From a virus (Duplodnaviria; Caudoviricetes), in the IMG/VR virus record IMGVR_UViG_3300020036_001753, positions 26,847-90,846 of that record: DNA of 64,000 bases, one strand, 5' to 3'. Below the pieces are notes generated by a model that did no database searches, had not been told where the DNA came from, and worked only from the letters and a program-made list of their open reading frames with translations. Positions 3 to 40,844 of the stretch are shown here, piece by piece. Numbering within the stretch: position 1 is the first letter of the stretch; each line of letters opens with the position of its first letter. The translations under genes were made by a program, and so were the position numbers.

Positions 3-3000
3 CAGGGTTATATTAATAAAGTAGCAGAGTATGCACAAGTTTATTATTATAATGTGATTGAATCTAGCTATTATACTGGCGGAGGAGAGTCGGTTTATTC
101 TTACAATAAACCTAATTTTCTTACTAGATTTTTTAATAAGTTTACTAGATTAAATAAGGTTGACAGTCTAGATGCTACTAAAGATAAGCAAGATATTCTG
201 GATTTTATTAAGGAGTATATGCAAGATACTGGTATGATATTCAGTAATTGGGTATATGAGAATGGTAGTAATAATACCTTTTTGAAAGTTCGTCAAGGTG
301 AAAAGACTTTAGAGGAATTGACAATTGATGATCTTAATATCGAAGCTATTAAAAACTTTGAGTTTAATTTACTTGATACAGTTAAACAAGAGAATAGTAA
401 TGTTGTTGTGGATTATTCTTCTATGAGTGGTGAAGATTGGAAGATGTTTACGTTACTAGAATACTTGAATGGCGCAAAAGGATTTGCCAACATCCCTATA
501 TTGATACAGAGTGATAGTAGCAATATTTATACGCTGCAATTACCTAAGATTAGTATATACGAAGCTGGTTCAGTTTTTACTGATAAAGGCATTAAGCGTA
601 GCTCTAAGCTATTTAAAGCTGTAGAAAATACAGTTATTCAAGAAATAGCTAGAATGCAAGTAGCTAAAAATTTGTTATTCGATGAAATTAAGAATGATGC
701 TGGCGTAGTTATAGGCTTATCACCTAAGCAGTTTGATAATGCTATGCTTGCTTCTTTAGAACAAGGTTATCATTATGATACTTTAGGTAAAGATGGTCAA
801 CCTATTCTATTAGATTCTGCAGGATTTCCTACTGGAAGAGTATTTAAATTTCAGAATACTAATTATAGTTCTGCTACTGGAGAGATTATAAGTCTTAATA
901 ATTCTCCAGAGTTGTTTAGCTTTGGTATCTTTAGAAGAGATATGGTTAGAAATCTAATTATCAATGATCATATTGAAAGCTTTATTAATGATCTTGTTAA
1001 GTCTCATCTTAAGATTTATAAATCTTTTGAAGGCAATATAACTATAGCAGAGAAGGGTAAGAAAACAAAGTTGTTAAGTAGCTATTCTAATTACGCAGAC
1101 TTTATAGCGGAGTTTGCTATCAATACTTATTTATCTAATGTAGAGCAGTCTAATTGGATGTCTGGTCTTTTAGGACAATATAAGTCTTGGGTTGAAAGTA
1201 ATAAGAGAGCTAAGCAATTAACTTCTCCTGCACAAACTGCTGGAACTGCTTATAGAGGAGTTACATATAAAGCTGCTGTTGTAGAAGATGCAAACCTAGC
1301 ATCTTCCTATCTACAGGGAATAAAAGCCAGTTTGATTAGCAGTCTGAAAAATAAATATCCTGGTTTAGTATACAGAGAGAAAACAAAAGCTAAACGTAAT
1401 GCTTTAGAAATTGAAGTAGATAAGATTTTAAAAGCTTATAGCAGGACTACTGTTTCTGATGGACAATCATATATGACTTTGGATAGGCTTGAAAAAGTAC
1501 TTAAGGATTTTGGAAGATGGAATAAGAAGTATGAGATGCTTTTTGCTAAAATTAAAGCTGGTGCAACCTTAACTGAAAATGATATTAGTTTATTACTTGT
1601 ACCTATGAAACCTTATTACTATTACAAAAATGTAAATGGTAATACAAGTTCTGTAAGATCAACTCAAGTAAAGACAGCTATCATTCCTTTGATTCCTCAA
1701 TTGATTAAAGGTACTGGTTTGGAAAGAGTTCTAGCTAACATGGAGAAAAATAGTGTTGATGAGATTTATTTTAAATCTGCGGTTAAAGTAGGCGGAACTT
1801 ATACAAACAAGATACTTGATAATAAAGGAAATGTTCTTAAGAACTTTGATCTTATTGCTGCTGATTATTACAACGAAGGATGGGGATTGCAATTAGATTT
1901 ACCTCAACACTTGAAAGATCAGCAAAATAAGTTAGGGATACAGATAGCTAAGTTAATATTCAGTAACTTACCTGCTACAACACAATTTGCTGTAGGAAGT
2001 ACTACCTATACTGGCGAGCAGTTATTTAAACTGTTTACAGATTTGCAAGAAGCCAATCTTAAGCAGGACTTAAATACTTTGCTAGAGGAACTTGGAGTAT
2101 TCAGATTTGAGGAATTGTATGATGCTTTAGATAGTTTAAATACTGGTAGAGTAAGTGATCCTTCATTTGGATTTACTGATTATAATAAAGTTGCTGAGAT
2201 TCTTAAAGATGAGATAATCAAACGTAATTTACCTTTGCATTATCTTAACTTTATTGAATTAGATCCATTAGATAATACGTTTAAGATACCATTGTCTTTA
2301 GGATTTTTAGGTAACAAGTTTCAACAAATTCTTACAGCATTGTTTACTAATAGAATAACAGATCAAAAGTTTCCTGGGGGTCACGTTGCTCTTATTAGTG
2401 ATATTATGTTTACGCATATTGAAAATCCAACAGACTTAGGTATAGAATTTATTAGTACTGGAGAAAAAGGTAAGGAAGTTCAAGAGAGATTAAAATCCGG
2501 TAACTTTAGATTACAGCCTCCGATTATTGTAAATGAAACTACTTTGAAAGTAGAAGCTATTATGCCTGCTTGGAGTAAGAAGTTTTTTAAGAATGGTAAT
2601 AGAGTATCTATTAACGAAATTCCTGAAGAGCTTAGGACTATGGTTGGTTATAGAATTCCAACTGAAGAAAAGTATTCAATGGTAGTATTAGAAGTTATTG
2701 GATTTGCTCCTGAAGGTCTTGATACGTTTGCAATACTTCCTGGCGAATTAGTTACTAAAACTGGTTGGGATTTTGATATTGATACATTGTATCTAATGCA
2801 AAAAACTTTCGATGTTAATCTGAAAGAATATAAATATACAACAGATAGAGATAAGTTGTTTAGACAATTTGTTATCAATAGAACTAATGTTAATATTTAT
2901 AAAGATTTTGCAGAAGATAAGAAAGCTATTATCAAAGATTTTGCAGAATTTTATGGAGTGCCTGCTGATAACTTAGGTGAAGTATTTGATTATCTTAATC

Positions 3001-5585
3001 AGCTTATCGCAGATGAAAAGGAACGTCAATCTTTACTTGATTGGATTGATAATTCAGATATTACAGCATTACGGTTCGATATTGAATATGTAAAAGCTAT
3101 AGGACAAGAAATAGCAGAAGCAAAAGCACGTATTGCTACGACTGAAGAAATGTATCGTGATGAATTTAATGCCTATACTACTGAGGAACTAAATAGTAAA
3201 GCTGCTCGGAATAATAGAATATTTGATATCTTCAAAGGTATCCTATCTTCTCCTGATATATACGCACAAGCTATGACACCTGGTGCATTTTCTGATATGG
3301 CTGATCTTAAAACTAAAGTTGAAAAGCTAATAGGAGATTCAGGTAGTCGTTATAATCCTCATACTAGGGCTGGTCAAGATAGCTTTAGAGATAAGAATAT
3401 TTCTGGAGTTATTCTTAAAGGTATTTCTGCTTCTATTAATGGAGCGTTGCCTATATTCCAGCAAACAGAGTCTCAATTTAGTGACGATTTAGCTTTCACT
3501 ATAATAGAGAATGGCGAAACAAAAATATATAAAGCTATAGGTAAAAGAGATGACGGCACTGTTTATGGTGAAAACGGTAATCTTATTACTAATGGTACTG
3601 CACAATTACTTGGTAATACTGTTGATATTGTTAAGGAAGGATTTCCCTATAATATAAACGTGGAGACAGTTTATATATTTTCTGCAATGCTTATAACAGG
3701 TATTAGTATTGATTATGCTGGTACGTTTATACGTCAACCTATAGTAAATAAATATGTTTCTACTGTTATCAATGATAAAACTCTGTTTGGTTCAAATAAA
3801 TCTAATGCGTATTCTAAAGTAAAAAGAGAATATCAAACTAAGCTGTATCATTTAATGGTATCGGAAGGACTTATTGATACTAAAGATGCTGTTAAGAGAA
3901 AACAACTAGTGCTAAACAAAGAAAAGAATAAATGGGAATGGTCTGCTAAACCTATTTATTTACGTGAAGATGAATCTGCTATCTTAGAAGTTCCTGGTAC
4001 AACTGCTTGGAGTGTAGAAGAACTAAATGATATGTTAGCAGTAGAGAATCCTTATACAGTTTCTAAGCTATCTAATGCAGATAAAATTAAGTTTCTTAGA
4101 GAACAATTAGCTTTATTGGAAAGATACAGAGTTTATGAAAATACTGGACAAGCGTTACAATCTAATGTTAATCTTCTTGTTACAGATAAGATGGGAATCG
4201 GACCTAATATTAACGTTACTAGAGAATGGTCAGAACGTGTATCTGAAGAGATTAATAATAGTTTAGATAATGATAGTGGAATTTTCACTAAAGATGGAGA
4301 AGCTTTGCTTAGTGCTATTTATAGTAATGAAGAATCTGCTTACGCTCCTTTAGCTAATTATGTAACTTATGGTAATGCTCCTGGTTATAATATACTTAGC
4401 AAGCTTTTCTTTACTACTAGTAATAACTTTAATAACTTTAAAGATATTCTTAATATAAAGAATGGAGATGCTCTAGTAGATAATTACTTATTGCAAGCGT
4501 TAGTAAGTATGATGCCTTATGCACAAGCTCTTAATACTCCGGAAATACTAGGTATAAATAAAGAGTTTACGCCTGTATTTGATTTTACTTCGCAATCTAT
4601 TGAAGAGTTTGATGCATTAAGTACTGCTAACAAATTGTTCTTAATTAAGAATAACTTAACTACAGTGTTAGCTAAAGAAAGAGCGCATTTTCTTAACTTC
4701 TTAGAGCCAAACATCGACGCTAACGTTATTAAACGTAGAGGATTTCACTTTATCAATTTTAATAAGCCCAAGTCTACTGATAACATTGATGATACTATCA
4801 TAATATCTTTTGAAAAGCTTATTAACTCTGATAATAAGTTCTTAGCTAATTTAGGTAAGAGTTTGGTTGACTATAACGTAGCTTTGTATGGATTGAATTT
4901 TGCTTCTAATTCTTGGAGTAATTATATACCTGCTACTTATTTGGTTAATACTATGCAAGTTGATAAAGCTTTTAAGAATTACGAATTTAGATTGAATTCA
5001 GGAGAGACTTTAGTTTCTTATGATACTGATACTTTCTATAGAAATAATTGGGATAATACTAATATTGTTCCTCAAGTTTATTCTAATTATGCTAAAGATG
5101 CAAGTGGAAGATACCTTATGGAAGAGGATGAATATGGGCAACCATTAGGTTATGAAGTTATTGATAATAAACCTGATTGGTCGGCAGCTAGTAATAGTAG
5201 TATATTACCTATTAGCAAGAAGAGATTAGCTAAAGAAGATAGCAAGATTAAAAGAGCAAAGTTCTTGTTAATATCTAAACTAGTTAAAGGTGAAAAAGTT
5301 ACTACACTATTCAAACGGTATTTTACTGGAATACGTGAAATAGATAATATATACGATACTAAAATAAGTAATGCTGTATATTATTATCCTATCGGAAAGC
5401 TTGGAGGTAAGTTAAAAAATACCGAATTTACAGCCAATTCAATGTACGCTGAAAATAACGTTGCTTATCCAGCAGAAGTTTTTGAAAAGATGTTAGAACA
5501 TAAATATTTAGGAAATACATTAACTCCTTCGGAAGCTAAAGCTATAATAGAAGCTGAACGTAACGAAGATAAATCTTGTAAATAG
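3..5585 (+). CDS. Virion-associated single-chain RNA polymerase, crAss-like (5'-truncated)
   Basis: Frame is open from position 3, so the listed start at 54 is not the true start. GYRIPT and KTGWDFDIDTLY (catalytic DxDxD) motifs. SDGQSY, FKSAVKVG and GLQLDLP blocks are as recalled for crAss-like vRNAPs. Ends in TAG. Confidence 0.92.
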   Translation, partial: QGYINKVAEYAQVYYYNVIESSYYTGGGESVYSYNKPNFLTRFFNKFTRLNKVDSLDATKDKQDILDFIKEYMQDTGMIFSNWVYENGSNNTFLKVRQGEKTLEELTIDDLNIEAIKNFEFNLLDTVKQENSNVVVDYSSMSGEDWKMFTLLEYLNGAKGFANIPILIQSDSSNIYTLQLPKISIYEAGSVFTDKGIKRSSKLFKAVENTVIQEIARMQVAKNLLFDEIKNDAGVVIGLSPKQFDNAMLASLEQGYHYDTLGKDGQPILLDSAGFPTGRVFKFQNTNYSSATGEIISLNNSPELFSFGIFRRDMVRNLIINDHIESFINDLVKSHLKIYKSFEGNITIAEKGKKTKLLSSYSNYADFIAEFAINTYLSNVEQSNWMSGLLGQYKSWVESNKRAKQLTSPAQTAGTAYRGVTYKAAVVEDANLASSYLQGIKASLISSLKNKYPGLVYREKTKAKRNALEIEVDKILKAYSRTTVSDGQSYMTLDRLEKVLKDFGRWNKKYEMLFAKIKAGATLTENDISLLLVPMKPYYYYKNVNGNTSSVRSTQVKTAIIPLIPQLIKGTGLERVLANMEKNSVDEIYFKSAVKVGGTYTNKILDNKGNVLKNFDLIAADYYNEGWGLQLDLPQHLKDQQNKLGIQIAKLIFSNLPATTQFAVGSTTYTGEQLFKLFTDLQEANLKQDLNTLLEELGVFRFEELYDALDSLNTGRVSDPSFGFTDYNKVAEILKDEIIKRNLPLHYLNFIELDPLDNTFKIPLSLGFLGNKFQQILTALFTNRITDQKFPGGHVALISDIMFTHIENPTDLGIEFISTGEKGKEVQERLKSGNFRLQPPIIVNETTLKVEAIMPAWSKKFFKNGNRVSINEIPEELRTMVGYRIPTEEKYSMVVLEVIGFAPEGLDTFAILPGELVTKTGWDFDIDTLYLMQKTFDVNLKEYKYTTDRDKLFRQFVINRTNVNIYKDFAEDKKAIIKDFAEFYGVPADNLGEVFDYLNQLIADEKERQSLLDWIDNSDITALRFDIEYVKAIGQEIAEAKARIATTEEMYRDEFNAYTTEELNSKAARNNRIFDIFKGILSSPDIYAQAMTPGAFSDMADLKTKVEKLIGDSGSRYNPHTRAGQDSFRDKNISGVILKGISASINGALPIFQQTESQFSDDLAFTIIENGETKIYKAIGKRDDGTVYGENGNLITNGTAQLLGNTVDIVKEGFPYNINVETVYIFSAMLITGISIDYAGTFIRQPIVNKYVSTVINDKTLFGSNKSNAYSKVKREYQTKLYHLMVSEGLIDTKDAVKRKQLVLNKEKNKWEWSAKPIYLREDESAILEVPGTTAWSVEELNDMLAVENPYTVSKLSNADKIKFLREQLALLERYRVYENTGQALQSNVNLLVTDKMGIGPNINVTREWSERVSEEINNSLDNDSGIFTKDGEALLSAIYSNEESAYAPLANYVTYGNAPGYNILSKLFFTTSNNFNNFKDILNIKNGDALVDNYLLQALVSMMPYAQALNTPEILGINKEFTPVFDFTSQSIEEFDALSTANKLFLIKNNLTTVLAKERAHFLNFLEPNIDANVIKRRGFHFINFNKPKSTDNIDDTIIISFEKLINSDNKFLANLGKSLVDYNVALYGLNFASNSWSNYIPATYLVNTMQVDKAFKNYEFRLNSGETLVSYDTDTFYRNNWDNTNIVPQVYSNYAKDASGRYLMEEDEYGQPLGYEVIDNKPDWSAASNSSILPISKKRLAKEDSKIKRAKFLLISKLVKGEKVTTLFKRYFTGIREIDNIYDTKISNAVYYYPIGKLGGKLKNTEFTANSMYAENNVAYPAEVFEKMLEHKYLGNTLTPSEAKAIIEAERNEDKSCK

Positions 5586-5586
5586 T

Positions 5587-8500
5587 ATGATTTGTACTTT
5601 TAATGCACCAAACGGAGAAGCTTCAAATTTATATTCAGAAGTTAAAGATGCTTATGGTTCTTTAGCAGCAGAAGCTACGTATGCTTTTGTTAGAACTCCT
5701 GAATTTAAAGAACGATATCCAGAAGCTTTATTTTCTTATCAAGGTGAACCTGAATTTGGTTGGCTACTAACTAATAATTTAATTAGAAATTTTGCTGATC
5801 CTACACCTTTGGAAAGTAAAGTTTATCAAGATTTTACTAGATTAGCTGATATATTTGAGGAGTATGTACCTAACCTATATCTTAGAGAAGATACCGAATT
5901 GAATGCAAGTGCGGAAATAGGTTATGACGCAAATAATGTTCCTTACATAGCTTTCAATCCTAATAGAATTGCAGCTGATAGTATTTTTCATGAATTTGGA
6001 CACCTTTACGTAGATTTATTAGGATATACTAATCCTTTAATTCAGGCAGGTATTGATCAATTGAGAGGTACTACTCTTTGGAATAATATTCAAAGACTGT
6101 ATCCTGATTTGAATGACGAACAACTTGGAAAAGAAGTATTAACTACTGCAATAGGAAACCAAAGCTTACTTCTACAGGGAGATAATAAAATTGTATTTAT
6201 AATTAATCAGATACTTAGAAAGATTGCTGAACTATTAGGATTAGAAATAGACATAGCGAAGAAACTAGCTTCTGAATTAATTACTGGTAACGTTGAAAAG
6301 AAACTTAGAGGAAAACTCTCCCTGTATAGACAACAACGACGTTTTGAATTGGTTAATGATGCTTTTATAACTAAGAAAAGTTTTTTGATTAAAGCTAGAA
6401 ATTCACTTATCAAAAAGATAAATGATTTCTATTCGCATTTATCGGCAGCTGAAAAAGCTAAAGATATTAGTTATACTAAACTATCTACATTCAAGCAAAT
6501 GCTGGATAATGCTATTGAGTCTAACGAGGATATTGGTATCTTAAATTTCATTAAGAATACTTATGAACTAGCAACTAGTCTTAATGCAAGATTAGATCAA
6601 ATAGTTGATGGAACTTGGAGAGATGCTCGAACTGGAAGAACTGAAGTTACAGCTGAAGATATTCTTAATATTCAAAATTACAATAGTCTTTTTGGTTTAG
6701 CTACCGAATTGATTGAACTTGTAGAAACTGATCCTAGTTTGAAACTGCGTATTAGTATGTTAAAACTAGATAACGCTTTACAGGATATAGCAGCTAAACA
6801 TATTAAGATAGCAAATCTTAGTAAACAACTTGGTATCAAGATTGGAAGTAAGCTACTAAGAAAAAGCGGTGCAGGAATTAATAAAGAAGAAGCCTTACAA
6901 AGACAGAAGCTGGAAAGAGAATACAATCAAACAAATAAGGAAGAACGTAATGCCGCTAATACTCCTGGAAAGAAACGCAGATTTGCAGAGAAACGGACTA
7001 AGTGGGTGAATGAGCAATTGCCTAAGTCTGAAGATACTAGTTATTATGATTATATTTTACAACAATCTAATAGAGATATATCTTATTTAGACAGATTGTT
7101 TGTAGATGCGGATAAGCTTAATGATGAATTAATAAATACAGTTAGTGAAATTCTTGATAAAGTCGATTACGAAACCATGACTGCTGTAAATAAAGAATAC
7201 GATGCTTTAAATGCAGTATTCCTAGATTACAGTAAAAAACATCCCCAGGGAGATCAATTTGAAAAGTATAAAGATTTGCTTGAAGATGAAGTTATTTATA
7301 AAGATGGCAAAATTGTAAAGACTGGTAAAAAGAATACTAAATTAGCTAGTAAATATTATTCAATATTTATTGCTGAACATAATAAGGCTTGGGAAAAGTA
7401 TCATGAATTAGGTAATACTTTAGGTTACAAAAGTAAAGAAGCTAAAGCGGAGTATAAAAAAGTATTAGTTTGGCGTAACGCTAACATGGTTAATAAAGGT
7501 ACTAAAGCTGACCCAGTTTGGATTGCTAATGACAAATGGCTTAATCCTGCATATGATGCTATTAAAGACGATCCTATGTATAAGTATCTTACTAATTCTC
7601 TTATTGAAGCTGATTTAAATTTGCCTACGGCAGCTAAACTAGTTCGTAGTAGATATGGAGTTAACTCATTTGAATTACCTTCAATTAAGAGAAGAGGTCT
7701 AGAAAAGGTTTATCGCGATGGATTGTTTTCTACTATCAAAGAGAAGTGGGATGCTTTTTGGACTAAGTCTGCTGAAGATGATACTGCTTATGGAACTACA
7801 GTAGTTGTAGATACTTTGAATGACGCTTTGTTAGTAACAACTAATGAAGCTGGAGTTGAGCAAAACTCAATTCCGATTCACTTTAGGCATACTATTTCCA
7901 AAGAAGATCAATCCTACGATCTGCCTAGTATAATCTTATTGAATTATCATATGGCATTGAATTATAAAAACAAAACTAATGTTCGATTTGATATAGAATT
8001 AATCAGAACTTTGGCTGCCGAAAGAGATGTAGTTAAAACTGATGTAGGATTCTTGAGAGGTTTGAAATATAAGCTTGATAGAGTGTTATACAGAAAGACA
8101 GCAGATAAGGAATCTGATAAGCCTGGAGAACAAATTCCATTAACAGAAAAAGGAGAATTTAGTAATGCTTTTGCAGCATTAGATTCTATGATCGAACATA
8201 GATTATATGGAATTAGTACTTTATCTAGTGTTCAAGTTAATAAGATAGTTAATGCTATTGCTGGATATACGGGTCATACGTTGTTAATGCTTAATTATTT
8301 ATCAGCCGGAGCTAACTTAGCTACCGGTATGATGTATAATATGTTTAGAGTTTCTCCTAGATTTTATACTAGAGATAACTTTGCAAAAGCTCATGCTAAA
8401 TACGTAGCTAATATTCATACCATAGTTGGAGATATTGGAAAGCGAGTTCCTACTAGTAAAGTTAATTTGTTAATAAGAAAATTTAATGCTTTTGGAGATT

Positions 8501-16439: not shown

Positions 16440-17144
16440 TCACTTGTTTTCAAAAAATTCTATAACTCGGTTAGCCATCGAGTCTTTCTGCATCTTTAAG
16501 TACTTGTCAAAATATGTCCAAACATCGTGACCTGCATGAATAACTGAATGCAACTCTATATTAGGACTAGTAGAATAAGAAGATGCTCTAATCTCATAAA
16601 TTGAGTTAGCCTCTGTCTTATAAAGTTTGCCAGTACTAGATAAAGCCATAGCAGAATCTTCAACTCCAGCTAAATCCATCTTATGAGCAAATCCGCCTTT
16701 ATAGGGAGTAGAATTATCTTCTATTCCATTAAGCATCATAACTCTAGGAGGCTTAATCGAAGATCCTGCTATTTTGACTAAAGGTTTTACAAGCGTTCCA
16801 GCTACAGCAAAAACATTGAGATCGCCTAAGTTCTTCTTTGCAGCAATCGTAAGAGCAAATACTGCGCCGCTAGATACTCCAACAATGTTAACTTCAGCAA
16901 GAGTAGTAAGTTCTGCAATTTCTCGCTGAATTATCTCAATAACTTTAGTAACATCTCGATCATAATTCCAACCTCCAGTTGGAGTATCAAAGTAAATGCC
17001 AATAAACTTATCTTGTTGCTTGGCAAACATTTTTGTAAATTTAGTAGCTTTGCCAGTTATTCCTGGAAAGCCTACTATAACCTTCTTTACATTATAATGG
17101 GAAGGCACTACTACTTCATAATGATATTCTACCATTTTAATCAA
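16440..17144 (-). CDS. Alpha/beta-hydrolase (esterase-like)
   Basis: Nucleophile elbow IVGVSSGA (GxSxG), acid in MLNGIED, His in HAGHDVW. Confidence 0.75.
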   Translation of the reverse strand: MIKMVEYHYEVVVPSHYNVKKVIVGFPGITGKATKFTKMFAKQQDKFIGIYFDTPTGGWNYDRDVTKVIEIIQREIAELTTLAEVNIVGVSSGAVFALTIAAKKNLGDLNVFAVAGTLVKPLVKIAGSSIKPPRVMMLNGIEDNSTPYKGGFAHKMDLAGVEDSAMALSSTGKLYKTEANSIYEIRASSYSTSPNIELHSVIHAGHDVWTYFDKYLKMQKDSMANRVIEFFENK

Positions 17145-17340
17145 TAGGTTGTTCTACGTAAGTAGGTCGTGAATAAGGAACGCCATTAGCGTCGTGAGTA
17201 ACTTTTACTAACTTAACAGCTTTGGTAGGCTTACCAGTAGTGCTGCTAGCTTGATCGGCTTTTACAGAATCTTCTAAATCTTTTCCATTAATAATAGGAA
17301 AATTTCTGTTAAAATTACCAAAACGAATTTGATCTGCCAT
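17137..17340 (-). CDS. Hypothetical protein
   Basis: 67 aa with an AT-rich leader; overlaps the next start. Confidence 0.6.
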   Translation of the reverse strand: MADQIRFGNFNRNFPIINGKDLEDSVKADQASSTTGKPTKAVKLVKVTHDANGVPYSRPTYVEQPID

Positions 17341-37690: not shown

Positions 37691-37722
37691 AAAAGAAAGC
37701 CCAAGTGCGCGAGCACTTGAGC
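37691..37722 (-). terminator. Intrinsic terminator
   Basis: caagtgc-gcga-gcacttg stem followed by TTTCTTTT on the minus strand, after the 37746-38471 gene. Confidence 0.7.
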
Positions 37723-37745
37723 CTTCTCTCTTCATCCTAAATCCG

Positions 37746-38471
37746 CTATTTCTTGCCTTTCTTCGCCAATGCAAGCTGGGCTTCCAACGCCGCTACAGCG
37801 TCGATAACTTCAGCAGGCTCTTCGGGCGCAACTTCGATGTTCTCTTCGATATGTTCATCGGCACCGAAGATGTCCGGTACTTTCGTATCCACTGTCGGTG
37901 GCACAACGACTGTTGCTGCTTTTACCGGCTGACGACGAGCTTCCCGACGCTCTTTCGCAATGGCAAGGCGATCTTCTTTGATAACCTCCATCGTGATCTC
38001 ATGCAACTCTTCTTTGACTTCCGGAGAAAGTTCAAAAGATTCGTTACCAGACCGATAGTGAGGTATCGTGTATTCGCCAACTACTCCGTCACGGGTAGTG
38101 TAAGTGTCACCTGGCGTAATAGGCCAAATATCCATGCTAAGATAAATGGCACCAACACTGGAACTCAAAAGTGACTTGAGATCGTAGATACTAAGATCCA
38201 CGTTATCGCAAAGAGTATCCAGATAACCAGGCGCAAAAGTAAACGTCGTTGCAGTCGTTGGGTGACCCTTGCCGGTAGTCACGACAGCAAGCCTGCCTGT
38301 AGTCCTGTTAGGTATCGTATTAATCCGGCTAATAGCCATTTTAATACGCTTAACTCCCGTAGGATTAGCAGCTTGAAATGCGGCTACTTCTTTAGCCCAA
38401 TTAGCAAGATACAGCTCTTTTTGAGCGGCTGATAATTGCTCATACTGGTCTTTAGACAAAATCTGAAACAT
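37746..38471 (-). CDS. Early-region hypothetical protein
   Basis: 241 aa, raised GC, acidic Pro/Glu-rich C-terminal region; preceded by a 14-bp motif copy and followed by a terminator. Confidence 0.8.
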   Translation of the reverse strand: MFQILSKDQYEQLSAAQKELYLANWAKEVAAFQAANPTGVKRIKMAISRINTIPNRTTGRLAVVTTGKGHPTTATTFTFAPGYLDTLCDNVDLSIYDLKSLLSSSVGAIYLSMDIWPITPGDTYTTRDGVVGEYTIPHYRSGNESFELSPEVKEELHEITMEVIKEDRLAIAKERREARRQPVKAATVVVPPTVDTKVPDIFGADEHIEENIEVAPEEPAEVIDAVAALEAQLALAKKGKK

Positions 38472-38514: not shown

Positions 38515-38528
38515 TCAGTAGGTTGTTT
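38515..38528 (-). promoter_or_regulatory. AAACAACCTACTGA motif, copy D
   Basis: Exact 14-mer; 43 nt before the ATG at 38471; hairpin 38550-38588 upstream. Confidence 0.7.
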
Positions 38529-38529
38529 T

Positions 38530-38759
38530 CTATCGTGGTCGGTGTAATAAAAGCAATCCCCAACCGCTGCAGCAGTTGAGGATGCTTTCGCTACTACTGT
38601 TAGGTGGCCAATCCTAACTATTTCGCATCTAATAGCCGGCAACATAAGCCGGCAGGCATTGCCCTCGCTATCGCCGGCAAATCGGAACACTAGTCCGGAC
38701 GGCACCATGATCGCTGCGAGGGCTTAATTGGATGCTAATTCTTTATAGCCATCCAAATA
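38530..38759 (-). ncRNA. Candidate structured non-coding RNA
   Basis: About 50% GC; at least six inverted repeats; bounded by motif copy C and a terminator-like hairpin with a T-run. Confidence 0.5.
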
Positions 38760-38773
38760 TCAGTAGGTTGTTT
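38760..38773 (-). promoter_or_regulatory. AAACAACCTACTGA motif, copy C
   Basis: Exact 14-mer; hairpin 38793-38826 upstream. Confidence 0.7.
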
Positions 38774-38831
38774 CTTATTATGGTAAAGGATGGAGTAATG
38801 CAATCCTCTTTCGGACTGCATTACTCTAGGA

Positions 38832-39146
38832 CTATACGTCTGGATGCCCAAAGTCCTCAATAGTGGAACGGCTTATCTGCGTATTAGGTTTAGGGAACAG
38901 CTTTCTGCGGAGCTCTTGCAGCCCCTTAAGCTGCTGCTTATATTCCCGTATTTTGGCAGCATGCCCGCCAATAGTCAGAAGATCAAGTTCTTTGGTAGCT
39001 ACGATGGCTTCCAGTTCCTTCATCTCCATTAAAGCGATATTTGCTTTGCAGGTTGCAATATTGGCATTAATACGGGCAATAGCCAATTTAGCAGCGGCTT
39101 TGGCAACCATGTCACCGCTGTTTTTCAATAAGAATTCGTAATCCAT
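38832..39146 (-). CDS. Helical hypothetical protein (104 aa)
   Basis: Start reassigned to MDYEF at 39146; the longer ORF would run through a motif and a hairpin. Confidence 0.7.
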   Translation of the reverse strand: MDYEFLLKNSGDMVAKAAAKLAIARINANIATCKANIALMEMKELEAIVATKELDLLTIGGHAAKIREYKQQLKGLQELRRKLFPKPNTQISRSTIEDFGHPDV

Positions 39147-39187
39147 TGTAATAGATTTAGAAGATGAGTTAATATAATGAACTGTAT

Positions 39188-39201
39188 TCAGTAGGTTGTT
39201 T
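39188..39201 (-). promoter_or_regulatory. AAACAACCTACTGA motif, copy B
   Basis: Exact 14-mer; 41 nt before the ATG at 39146; hairpin 39219-39248 upstream. Confidence 0.7.
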
Positions 39202-39259
39202 CTGCTCTTCAAGCAGTATTGCAAGCAACCTAGTAAGGCTACTTGCAACTTGCGGAGTA

Positions 39260-39604
39260 TCATTGTTCGTTGCCGCAAGGGCAACTGTAAATCCATGCAC
39301 CATCATAATCATTTCTATGATTAAGATTAGTGCATTCGTGTCTCATTGCTGTAATCACCTCAATACCATATTGGTAATCAGGATGGTTACAACCATGTCC
39401 ATCGCATTCGCATATCTCTTCGCAAACGCCATTTAATGCTGGATGGCATTCGTGATCAGTAGCTTCTGCTGCATAAGCAGCTTCTGCACGAAGATGCTGC
39501 CAATCCTCATACAGTGTAGTATTGACAATAATAACCCAAAGCAGCATGGTAATACCAGTTGCAATACACATCGCTCCAAAAATCATGCCTACAATACGTT
39601 CCAT
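39260..39604 (-). CDS. Membrane-anchored Cys/His-rich protein
   Basis: N-terminal TM, then HECH...CEEICECDGHGCNH...HEC...CPCG. Confidence 0.65.
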   Translation of the reverse strand: MERIVGMIFGAMCIATGITMLLWVIIVNTTLYEDWQHLRAEAAYAAEATDHECHPALNGVCEEICECDGHGCNHPDYQYGIEVITAMRHECTNLNHRNDYDGAWIYSCPCGNEQ

Positions 39605-39691
39605 AATAATAGCTATATTAGTTTGTTATTGCATTATTGCAAAAATCAGCCCTTGCCGTAGCAAAGACTGATTCATGAAACAAACTATATC

Positions 39692-39895
39692 TTAAATGTG
39701 ACCTTGATCTGCAAGTTCATTTACAATTATTCCCCAAAAGGCTCCTGCTACAACAAACATTATAAACCATACCAATGCTATTGCGTCATTTACTCCACGC
39801 TCCATTCCGAACATAAAGATAACGAGGTTTGATAATGCTGCCCATAATCCAAAAAACAGAAAAGGTAATAATAGAATAATGATGATCTTTTTCAT
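39692..39895 (-). CDS. Small two-TM membrane protein
   Basis: Probable start MKKIII at 39895; two hydrophobic helices. Confidence 0.65.
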   Translation of the reverse strand: MKKIIIILLLPFLFFGLWAALSNLVIFMFGMERGVNDAIALVWFIMFVVAGAFWGIIVNELADQGHI

Positions 39896-39936
39896 AAGAA
39901 TGAAGTTTACGATGATGAACGATAACATAGCAGCAA

Positions 39937-39950
39937 TCAGTAGGTTGTTT
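39937..39950 (-). promoter_or_regulatory. AAACAACCTACTGA motif, copy A
   Basis: Exact 14-mer; 41 nt before the ATG at 39895; perfect 11-bp GNRA hairpin 39963-39988 upstream. Confidence 0.7.
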
Positions 39951-40396
39951 AATATACTAAATGAGTAACGGTATTGCTACCGTTACTCTACAATGCAGGA
40001 ATACTGCAAGGTGATATTAATATACATACATAACCAAGATCTTTAGATAACGAACACACGATTCGTTACCATTCTTGGTTTACAAAACCATACAAGATAC
40101 TATGATAAAAGGAAGAGCAACCTTAGCAGCATTGCACTGTTCAAGCTGCTCTCCTTTGTTCATCATAGTATGTTTAGCAATCTAATACAATCGCCTGTGG
40201 GCAATTCTGCGGCTTTAAGGCGGGGGTACTTCGATCGCTCAATAATCAGTGGGGGGCTTTGATTACGGTGGGTCACACCTATCTGTCAATAGCATATTTC
40301 AAAAATTTTTACTATAATTTTCTCTACACCTATATATAAAGGCGTACTTCGCCCATCCGCTTATTTTACTACTCCAAAATAAATTAGCTTTACTTA

Positions 40397-40427
40397 TTGC
40401 GTAGTAAATAATATTGCTGTATCTTTG
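40397..40427 (+). promoter_or_regulatory. Bacteroidota housekeeping-type promoter of the late operon
   Basis: TTG (40397-40399)-N20-TATCTTTG (40420-40427) matches -33/-7 TAnnTTTG; ATG at 40449. Confidence 0.65.
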
Positions 40428-40448
40428 TATCAAATTTAAAGAAAGCGC

Positions 40449-40844
40449 ATGATCTTAGATAAAGTTAAAGAAGATGCTATCAATGAAGTGTATCACGAAC
40501 TGCAAGATACAGGAGTTGACATTGATATTGACATTATAAAAACAGTTTTAGGAGTAACTAATGTTTACTATAAGCAAGCAATGGAGAGTAAACAACCTAA
40601 AGTAGTTATTCCTTATATTGGTAGTTTTAACTACAATCATGTTAAGGTAAAGAGGTTAGAGAGTAAAGGGGTTAATGCTGACAATGATTTTCCTGCTATT
40701 GAAAATGCTGTATCTCACTTTATGCAAATGAGTGCAGAAGAAAAAATAGAACTTAAAAAGAAACAAAGAGCTTTAACGAATAAATGGAATAAAGTTAAAG
40801 CTGCTTATAAAACCGGTGGAACTAATAGACAAGATAGTGATTAA
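40449..40844 (+). CDS. IHF/HU-like DNA-binding protein
   Basis: IIKTVLGVTNVYYKQAMESKQPKVVIPYIGSFNY resembles the HU/IHF helix-strand pattern; crAss-like late modules carry IHF-like genes. Confidence 0.55.
   Translation: MILDKVKEDAINEVYHELQDTGVDIDIDIIKTVLGVTNVYYKQAMESKQPKVVIPYIGSFNYNHVKVKRLESKGVNADNDFPAIENAVSHFMQMSAEEKIELKKKQRALTNKWNKVKAAYKTGGTNRQDSD

Follow-up and report, generated by a model that had tools for sequence, protein, structure and literature searches.

The DNA analysed here (the window) is a stretch of 64,000 nucleotides (nt) that forms the last 64 kb of a 90,846-bp viral record, IMGVR_UViG_3300020036_001753; the element in question is a 14-nt word, AAACAACCTACTGA, that recurs beside strong hairpins at the head of the leftward gene block. 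The gene map identifies the source genome as a crAss-like phage. Its rightward block encodes the terminase, the portal and the major head protein and continues across the record ends into three giant open reading frames (ORFs), and the helicases and DNA polymerase lie in a leftward block. The terminase is at most 30% identical to that of any deposited phage, which places the genome, by sequence divergence, in a deep branch of Crassvirales, and the DNA of the region gave no match to deposited phages in either near or distant search modes. Phages of the crAss-like group rank among the most abundant human gut viruses, and each of them injects a giant RNA polymerase. Here, a giant virion-protein ORF of 3,592 amino acids (aa) carries the sequence DFDID, and its C-terminal half matches the solved virion RNA polymerase of phi14:2 (6VR4, E 1.4e-32).

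Hairpin-and-motif cassettes fill the first 1.45 kb of the leftward block, adjoining the divergent switch between the two blocks at ~39,990-40,450. Two relatives are referred to throughout: L134, the most distant near relative, which was used to compare the modules with the genes between them, and L125, a family-level relative whose terminase is 45% identical (terminase relatives in IMG/VR are only 45-48% identical). The features are listed in their leftward order on the DNA, followed by the polymerase; coordinates are those of the window unless otherwise stated.

40420-40427, plus strand: perfect host-type -7 box of the rightward late operon (operon at 40449); contrast class
40242-40257, minus strand: degenerate motif copy 0, matching at 12 of 16 positions, within a ~55-nt element homologous to one in L125
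39989-40241, minus strand: structured stretch, candidate non-coding RNA A; -103.1 kcal/mol, z -8.1 (plus strand -92.6)
39963-39988, minus strand: hairpin 1, strand-symmetric, with a perfect stem of 11 bp; marks the end of the structured switch region
39937-39950, minus strand: motif copy 1, exact, with the gene 1 ATG (39895) 41 nt downstream; unchanged in all relatives
39692-39895, minus strand: gene 1, 67-aa hydrophobic protein without known domain; 53% nucleotide identity in L134
39643-39674, minus strand: U-tract terminator after gene 1, with no motif downstream of it
39260-39604, minus strand: gene 2, 114 aa, Cys-rich; the only local unit without an upstream motif
39219-39248, minus strand: hairpin 2, marking the 3' end of gene 2; its sense strand forms G-U pairs
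39188-39201, minus strand: motif copy 2, exact, with the gene 3 ATG (39146) 41 nt downstream
38832-39146, minus strand: gene 3, 104 aa (167 aa in L134, where it is replaced or diverged; 52.5% nucleotide identity)
38793-38826, minus strand: hairpin 3, at the 3' end of gene 3; L134 substitutions pair on the sense strand only
38760-38773, minus strand: motif copy 3, heading structured non-coding RNA B; one T-to-C change in L134
38589-38759, minus strand: body of predicted non-coding RNA B; sense-biased fold, covariation
38550-38588, minus strand: hairpin 4, T-run present; terminator of non-coding RNA B
38515-38528, minus strand: motif copy 4, exact, with the gene 4 ATG (38471) 43 nt downstream
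37746-38471, minus strand: gene 4, 241 aa, without known domain; U-tract terminator downstream at 37691-37730
3-5585, plus strand: C-terminal 1,860 aa of the 3,592-aa virion protein, with DFDID and the 6VR4 match; presumed reader of the motif

The structured stretch that separates copy 0 from hairpin 1 is ~250 nt long, and the units to the left of gene 4 carry no motif. None of the proteins of the early region matched an entry in PHROGs or Pfam.

The sequence-only reading had reported four exact minus-strand copies of AAACAACCTACTGA and had noticed none elsewhere. The window scan recovered these four, all on the minus strand within 1.45 kb beside the switch, and a scan of the whole 90,846-bp genome at up to one mismatch yielded no forward and four reverse matches, which were the same four copies only; the motif is not scattered through the genome. 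At up to two mismatches the window contains six matches against 0.72 expected, a number reached by none of 100 shuffles. When the cassettes were aligned, the 14-mer, one purine preceding it and two A/T positions following it were common to all four, while the flanks were unrelated. The distances of 41, 41 and 43 nt to the start codons of genes 1, 3 and 4, kept despite leaders unrelated in sequence, agree with the coordinates provided that gene 1 starts at 39895; an alternative ATG lies at 39928, 8 nt past the motif, and gene callers on the relatives used both starts. What is found is the arrangement of a contiguous-motif promoter, the type read by phage polymerases of the T7 group and by P23-45 gp96, with a near-identical motif of at least 14 nt directly upstream of each of its units and none elsewhere. 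A two-mismatch version at 17141-17154 (minus strand), 5 nt before the ATG of the gene at 16440-17135 and without an upstream hairpin, is probably a chance match.

Copy 3 had been proposed to head a structured RNA, a proposal that both folding and comparative data uphold. The RNA B unit extends ~210 nt after copy 3 and ends in hairpin 4 with its T-run. It folds 12.6 kcal/mol better on the sense than on the antisense strand (-84.0 vs -71.4 kcal/mol), and four of its predicted pairs show double compensatory changes among five sequences. A 66-codon frame that overlaps it contains a frameshifted stretch in L134. By these sequence comparisons the unit is non-coding. As copy 3 heads an RNA whose non-coding nature is supported by covariation, the motif is not a translation signal and acts at a step that precedes translation.

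The stretch at 39989-40241 could be a second early non-coding RNA, or a replication origin or origin-type DNA structure. Neither it nor RNA B had a match in an Rfam search. It is nearly invariant in the relatives, lies at the minimum of the cumulative GC skew and is dense in inverted repeats. At its outer side, independent contigs of three near-identical relatives from three samples (L128, L131 and L132) have true contig ends within 10 nt of one another, at 40255-40265, at copy 0. The coinciding ends may mark a physical terminus of the genome or the boundary of a terminal repeat, or the assemblies may have broken at the C-run.

Every exact copy of the motif follows a strong hairpin, with spacers of 12, 17, 19 and 21 nt for hairpins 1-4 as originally given. 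RNA folding confirmed all four hairpins, with minimum free energies of -17.4, -24.8, -23.2 and -28.5 kcal/mol (z -6.7, -5.3, -7.1 and -5.4). Stems of 10 bp or more occur in only 29 hairpins on the minus strand of the whole genome, and the chance of finding one within 25 nt upstream is ~0.008 per motif copy; the presence of one before every copy (4/4) is therefore not due to chance. The stems (11-17 bp) and loops (4-6 nt) differ between copies, and the GAGTAA...TTACTC base noted for two stems is that of hairpins 1 and 3. For hairpins 2-4 the minus strand gives the more stable fold (single-strand folds, sense vs template: -9.1/-7.5, -11.6/-10.4 and -12.4/-8.2 kcal/mol), which confirms the observation that stem mismatches resolve as minus-strand G-U pairs; hairpin 1 is symmetric. 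In L134, two substitutions in the stem of hairpin 3 (G-U to A-U, and G-C to G-U) keep pairing on the sense strand only. The claim that three of the hairpins lack a U-tract is roughly right: hairpins 2 and 3 are without one, hairpin 1 is weakly flagged by a simple scan and hairpin 4 is followed by a clear T-run.

All of the hairpins except hairpin 1 lie at the 3' end of a unit, and elsewhere in the leftward block the strong hairpins are ordinary U-tract terminators at gene ends. Further, neither copy 0 nor its counterpart in L125 has an adjoining hairpin. Because of their position at unit ends, their sense-strand bias, the sense-only pairing in L134 and the existence of motif copies without a hairpin, the hairpins look like terminators or RNA-level 3'-end structures of the preceding units, separable from the motif. 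These same observations, together with a spacing that varies from 12 to 21 nt, speak against the suggestion that the hairpin forms part of the recognition element.

We compared the cassettes with host-type promoters, defined here as the Bacteroidota sigma-A class (-33 TTTG and -7 TAnnTTTG, the latter ~7 nt ahead of the start site and the TTTG 19-21 nt upstream). The genome has six intergenic -7 boxes, and the scan of these placed no TAnnTTTG box in or after any cassette; the strict host promoter pattern has only four matches, each inside a gene. Conversely, a perfect box serves the facing late operon, and a further one precedes a tRNA. The contrast between the motif and the host -33/-7 consensus, drawn earlier from the late operon, is thus borne out. 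A leftward host-type -7 box at 40431-40438 points into the structured switch region; with the late-operon box it forms a near-palindrome of two facing boxes (40420-40438) at the far edge of the switch. The four published middle promoters of phi14:2, upstream of g070, g075, g108 and g110, all read TTG...TAnnTTTGTA. Extraction of these upstream regions led us to reject the idea that the motif belongs to the published "middle promoter" class. Those middle promoters are host-dependent (10.1101/2020.03.07.982082).

Near relatives were found through the protein encoded after copy 4, which belongs to a single cluster of close homologues on contigs L126-L138. Over the early region these are 87-99% identical, and each contig that covers a motif copy keeps that copy. 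Relative to L134, 55 of the 56 motif positions are unchanged, and genes 1 and 3 have only ~53% nucleotide identity. Hairpins 1, 2 and 4 and leaders 2 and 4 are wholly unchanged, and the cassettes are 82-100% identical. The result is a mosaic, with conserved modules on either side of the segments in which early genes are replaced between strains. The comparison with the promoter-early stem-loop (PeSL) elements of T4-like phages, made along with the suggestion that the cassettes could be recombination points for gene shuffling, is supported by L134, where replaced genes stand between conserved cassettes.

A metagenome scan with an exonuclease profile gave no relatives of intermediate distance, the matches being either 98% or at most 34% identical. 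An exact scan of viral contigs for the 14-mer returned only scattered single chance matches, and simple k-mer searches among the IMG/VR terminase relatives returned coding-sequence noise. L125 was compared in ungapped windows over intergenic DNA only and without reference to the motif. Three elements emerged. Two are identical, lie on the sense strand ~20 nt past a strong hairpin and have a related core, which is A-rich, then C-rich, and then reads ACTAAG where the motif of the phage studied here has ACTGA. The third is homologous to copy 0 over ~55 nt, including a common C-run further downstream. Patterns of the L125 type have almost no other matches in 1 Mb of other crAss-like DNA, and nothing comparable was found in L139, L140 or L145. 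Three long hairpins in early-arm intergenic gaps of L124 (L124:4062-4990), a near-duplicate pair and an unrelated one, have a conserved apex on different stems; these elements were given little weight, as the core sits at the hairpin apex.

Prototype crAssphage (BK010471) has a 20-mer, CTCATTATCAACATTAAATA, in exactly three identical copies over 97 kb; all are sense-strand copies that lie directly after the switch, no more than 1.3 kb from the early-arm start. One copy lies 9 nt past a strong hairpin, and the start codons follow at ~68-92 nt. This word is unrelated to the 14-mer. The signal at the head of the arm thus varies with phage lineage, being related in L125 and unrelated in the prototype, while the TAnnTTTG class is the same in phi14:2 and in the genome studied here.

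Several other repeats were noted in the same material. In L207, another crAss-like contig, five copies of a ~35-nt element with -35/-10-like blocks occur at L207:1089-1745 and 5253, four of them ~140 nt apart in non-coding DNA, which suggests a series of small transcription units. Despite a shared CTACTG core, this element looks like a -35/-10-type promoter of another lineage and was not treated as related. At L150:5991-6420 (also L149), a long non-coding stretch that precedes the late block contains, among other short tandem words, four to five copies of a 19-20-nt AT-rich word within 400 nt, perhaps origin iterons or an array of promoters. In L221 (crAss001 record 96180-96760), the 900 nt that separate gp96 (TROVE) from gp95 include four copies of one 13-nt word and two T-arm-like words, suggesting repeated tRNA-like or Y-RNA-like genes beside the TROVE gene. 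In the genome under study, the 12-mer CTTCTACAGGGA is present five times, always on the plus strand and inside five different genes, with no copy on the other strand (window positions 6169 and 42234; genome positions 6986, 11872 and 25898, before the window). Its hosts include the polymerase-bearing giant protein and the next giant protein, and four of the five copies share a frame and encode Leu-Leu-Gln-Gly; the repeat may act as a signal in the nucleic acid or reflect a common peptide, for instance a cleavage site.

Several known systems resemble the locus in part. In Thermus phage P23-45, the two-barrel virion polymerase gp96 begins pre-early transcription at sites with a contiguous, strongly conserved motif (10.1101/2022.12.01.518664). 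As there, the locus combines a single-polypeptide two-barrel virion polymerase with a contiguous motif immediately ahead of the units expressed first, and a similar motif is retained in related phages. The P23-45 motif, however, is AT-rich and backed by 14 mapped start sites and by chromatin immunoprecipitation sequencing, whereas the present one has four to five copies, a C-rich core and a polymerase of the crAss gp66 type. The early arm of phi14:2 is rifampicin-resistant, starts at the switch and encodes small genes together with abundant early non-coding RNAs (10.1101/2020.03.07.982082). The position beside a divergent switch, the small genes with non-coding RNAs and the homologous virion polymerase are all shared with the locus described here, where, unlike in phi14:2, a common motif is present.

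Coliphage N4 has few-copy promoters, P1-P3, at one genome end, with short template-strand DNA hairpins and a T7-like enzyme. The cassettes resemble them in being few, clustered at the first-expressed end and associated with hairpins, and the N4 polymerase is injected, as the presumed reader would be here. The hairpins of the present locus, however, are long, variable, sense-biased and separable from the motif; they are not the N4 type of 5-7 bp stem and 3-nt loop on the template strand at a fixed distance. Nor is the enzyme T7-like, since the giant protein matches the two-barrel 6VR4 and carries DFDID. PeSL elements of T4-like phages consist of a stem-loop and a host sigma-70 early promoter that flank small variable ORFs. 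Here, too, a stem-loop and an early signal flank small ORFs, and the modules bound gene replacement, as seen against L134; the motif differs in having no host sigma-70-type elements.

We consider it somewhat better than an even prospect that the 14-mer is a phage-specific promoter core that launches short independent early units, with the hairpins not part of it and the virion polymerase as its likeliest reader. The promoter assignment is favoured because the exact copies are few and on one strand, because they precede the first units at a fixed start distance and include an RNA gene, and because the signal is without host elements and specific to the lineage. Its conservation in near relatives, the related core in L125 and the parallel 20-mer of prototype crAssphage add to this support. 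Four units would be launched in this way, namely gene 1, gene 3, non-coding RNA B and gene 4, and the diverged copy 0 may launch a structured RNA from the switch region. The region would then be a chain of terminator-promoter-leader modules in which each hairpin ends the preceding unit, with initiation probably at or just past the motif. U-tract terminators after gene 1 and directly before copy 4 mean that fresh initiation is needed beyond them. The reader would most likely be the injected DFDID virion RNA polymerase, given the early-gene synteny with phi14:2, the absence of host sigma-A boxes and the lineage-specific signal. Of the earlier proposal of a recognition element for the packaged polymerase, the part concerning a unit-start signal at the head of the early arm, in a genome that encodes a crAss-type polymerase, therefore stands; the identity of the reader is argued from position, timing and synteny with phi14:2.

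A number of observations weigh against this assignment. No motif precedes gene 2. Conservation extends over the entire cassettes, spacers and leaders included, and does not single out the 14-mer. A related core in L124 forms the apex of long co-varying hairpins, which would suit an RNA-level element equally well. A head-of-arm motif search in phi14:2 and crAss001 found none, and phi14:2, the only crAss-like phage with mapped early 5' ends, has no common motif upstream of its early transcripts (10.1101/2020.03.07.982082). Finally, this is a promoter prediction for an uncultured phage from sequence data, which cannot identify the enzyme that reads it. The searchable literature yielded no published early-promoter definition for Crassvirales.

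The main rival, which we regard as unlikely, is an RNA processing or stability signal: a single transcript from the switch region would run through the hairpins, and the 14-mer, single-stranded after each hairpin, would be cut or bound by a ribonuclease or RNA-binding protein specific for its sequence. Each 3' end would then be protected by a hairpin, and the 5' leaders would be uniform. The RNA-level, sense-biased character of the hairpins, the lack of U-tracts at hairpins 2 and 3 and the L124 apex all suit such a signal, and the leftward host-type box at 40431-40438 could start the long transcript. The U-tract terminators after gene 1 and before copy 4 would nevertheless block read-through, copy 0 and its L125 homologue have no adjoining hairpin, an exact 14-mer is long for a cleavage site, and prototype crAssphage has its 20-mer at the same position. 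Recognition by the host RNA polymerase with an alternative sigma or a phage-made factor, or by an early regulator binding DNA, would leave the virion polymerase with no part in reading the motif. That the reader cannot be told from sequence favours this alternative, as does the motif-free early arm of phi14:2, since the crAss virion enzyme may need no motif; but nothing like the host -33/-7 elements lies beside the 14-mer, a phage-made factor would not yet exist when the units first in line beside the switch are expressed, and the signal differs by lineage while host-type promoters stay constant. We consider it rather improbable.

Some viral polymerases use sequence-specific stop signals, and the hairpin and the downstream 14-mer might together form a two-part terminator that ends the preceding unit for a phage polymerase. 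Every exact copy does follow a unit-end hairpin, yet it is the spacing to the hairpin that varies (12-21 nt) and the spacing to the next start that is fixed; genes 1 and 4 end in U-tract terminators without a motif, and copy 0 and its L125 homologue are without a hairpin, so that this explanation is very unlikely. An N4-style promoter, in which a hairpin extruded from the template strand of supercoiled DNA is recognised and the 14-mer is the initiation region, is extremely doubtful. In its favour, extrusion is conceivable for such long perfect inverted repeats, the small cluster of copies near a single genome end recalls P1-P3, and hairpins 1 and 3 have a common base. Against it, stem length (11-17 bp), loop length (4-6 nt) and spacing vary from copy to copy, hairpins 2-4 are less stable on the template than on the sense strand, the L134 changes would give A-C mismatches on the template strand, and the enzyme is two-barrel rather than T7-like. 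Least credible of all is the idea that the copies are repeated sites, close to a genome end or an origin, to which packaging or replication proteins bind. The three relative contigs that end at copy 0, and the cumulative GC-skew minimum and dense inverted repeats at the switch, would fit such sites; the copies, however, are spread over 1.45 kb on one strand, each of them precisely ahead of a gene or RNA.

If the 14-mer is the predicted promoter core, this short, exact signal of few copies offers a concrete template for in vitro transcription with the recombinant polymerase domain. It also provides a rule for finding early promoters in other lineages: the place to look is where the arm begins next to the divergent switch, and the thing to look for is a repeat specific to the lineage. 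The module structure would explain how early genes, which are probably host-takeover or anti-defence genes, are exchanged while their expression signals stay fixed. A further-reaching version would make the motif family the first sequence-defined class of virion-polymerase promoters in Crassvirales, with the diverged, family-conserved copy 0 at the physical end of the packaged genome and transcription coupled to entry. We think this unlikely; were it true, the polymerase would start on the first DNA entering the cell, as in N4 and T7.

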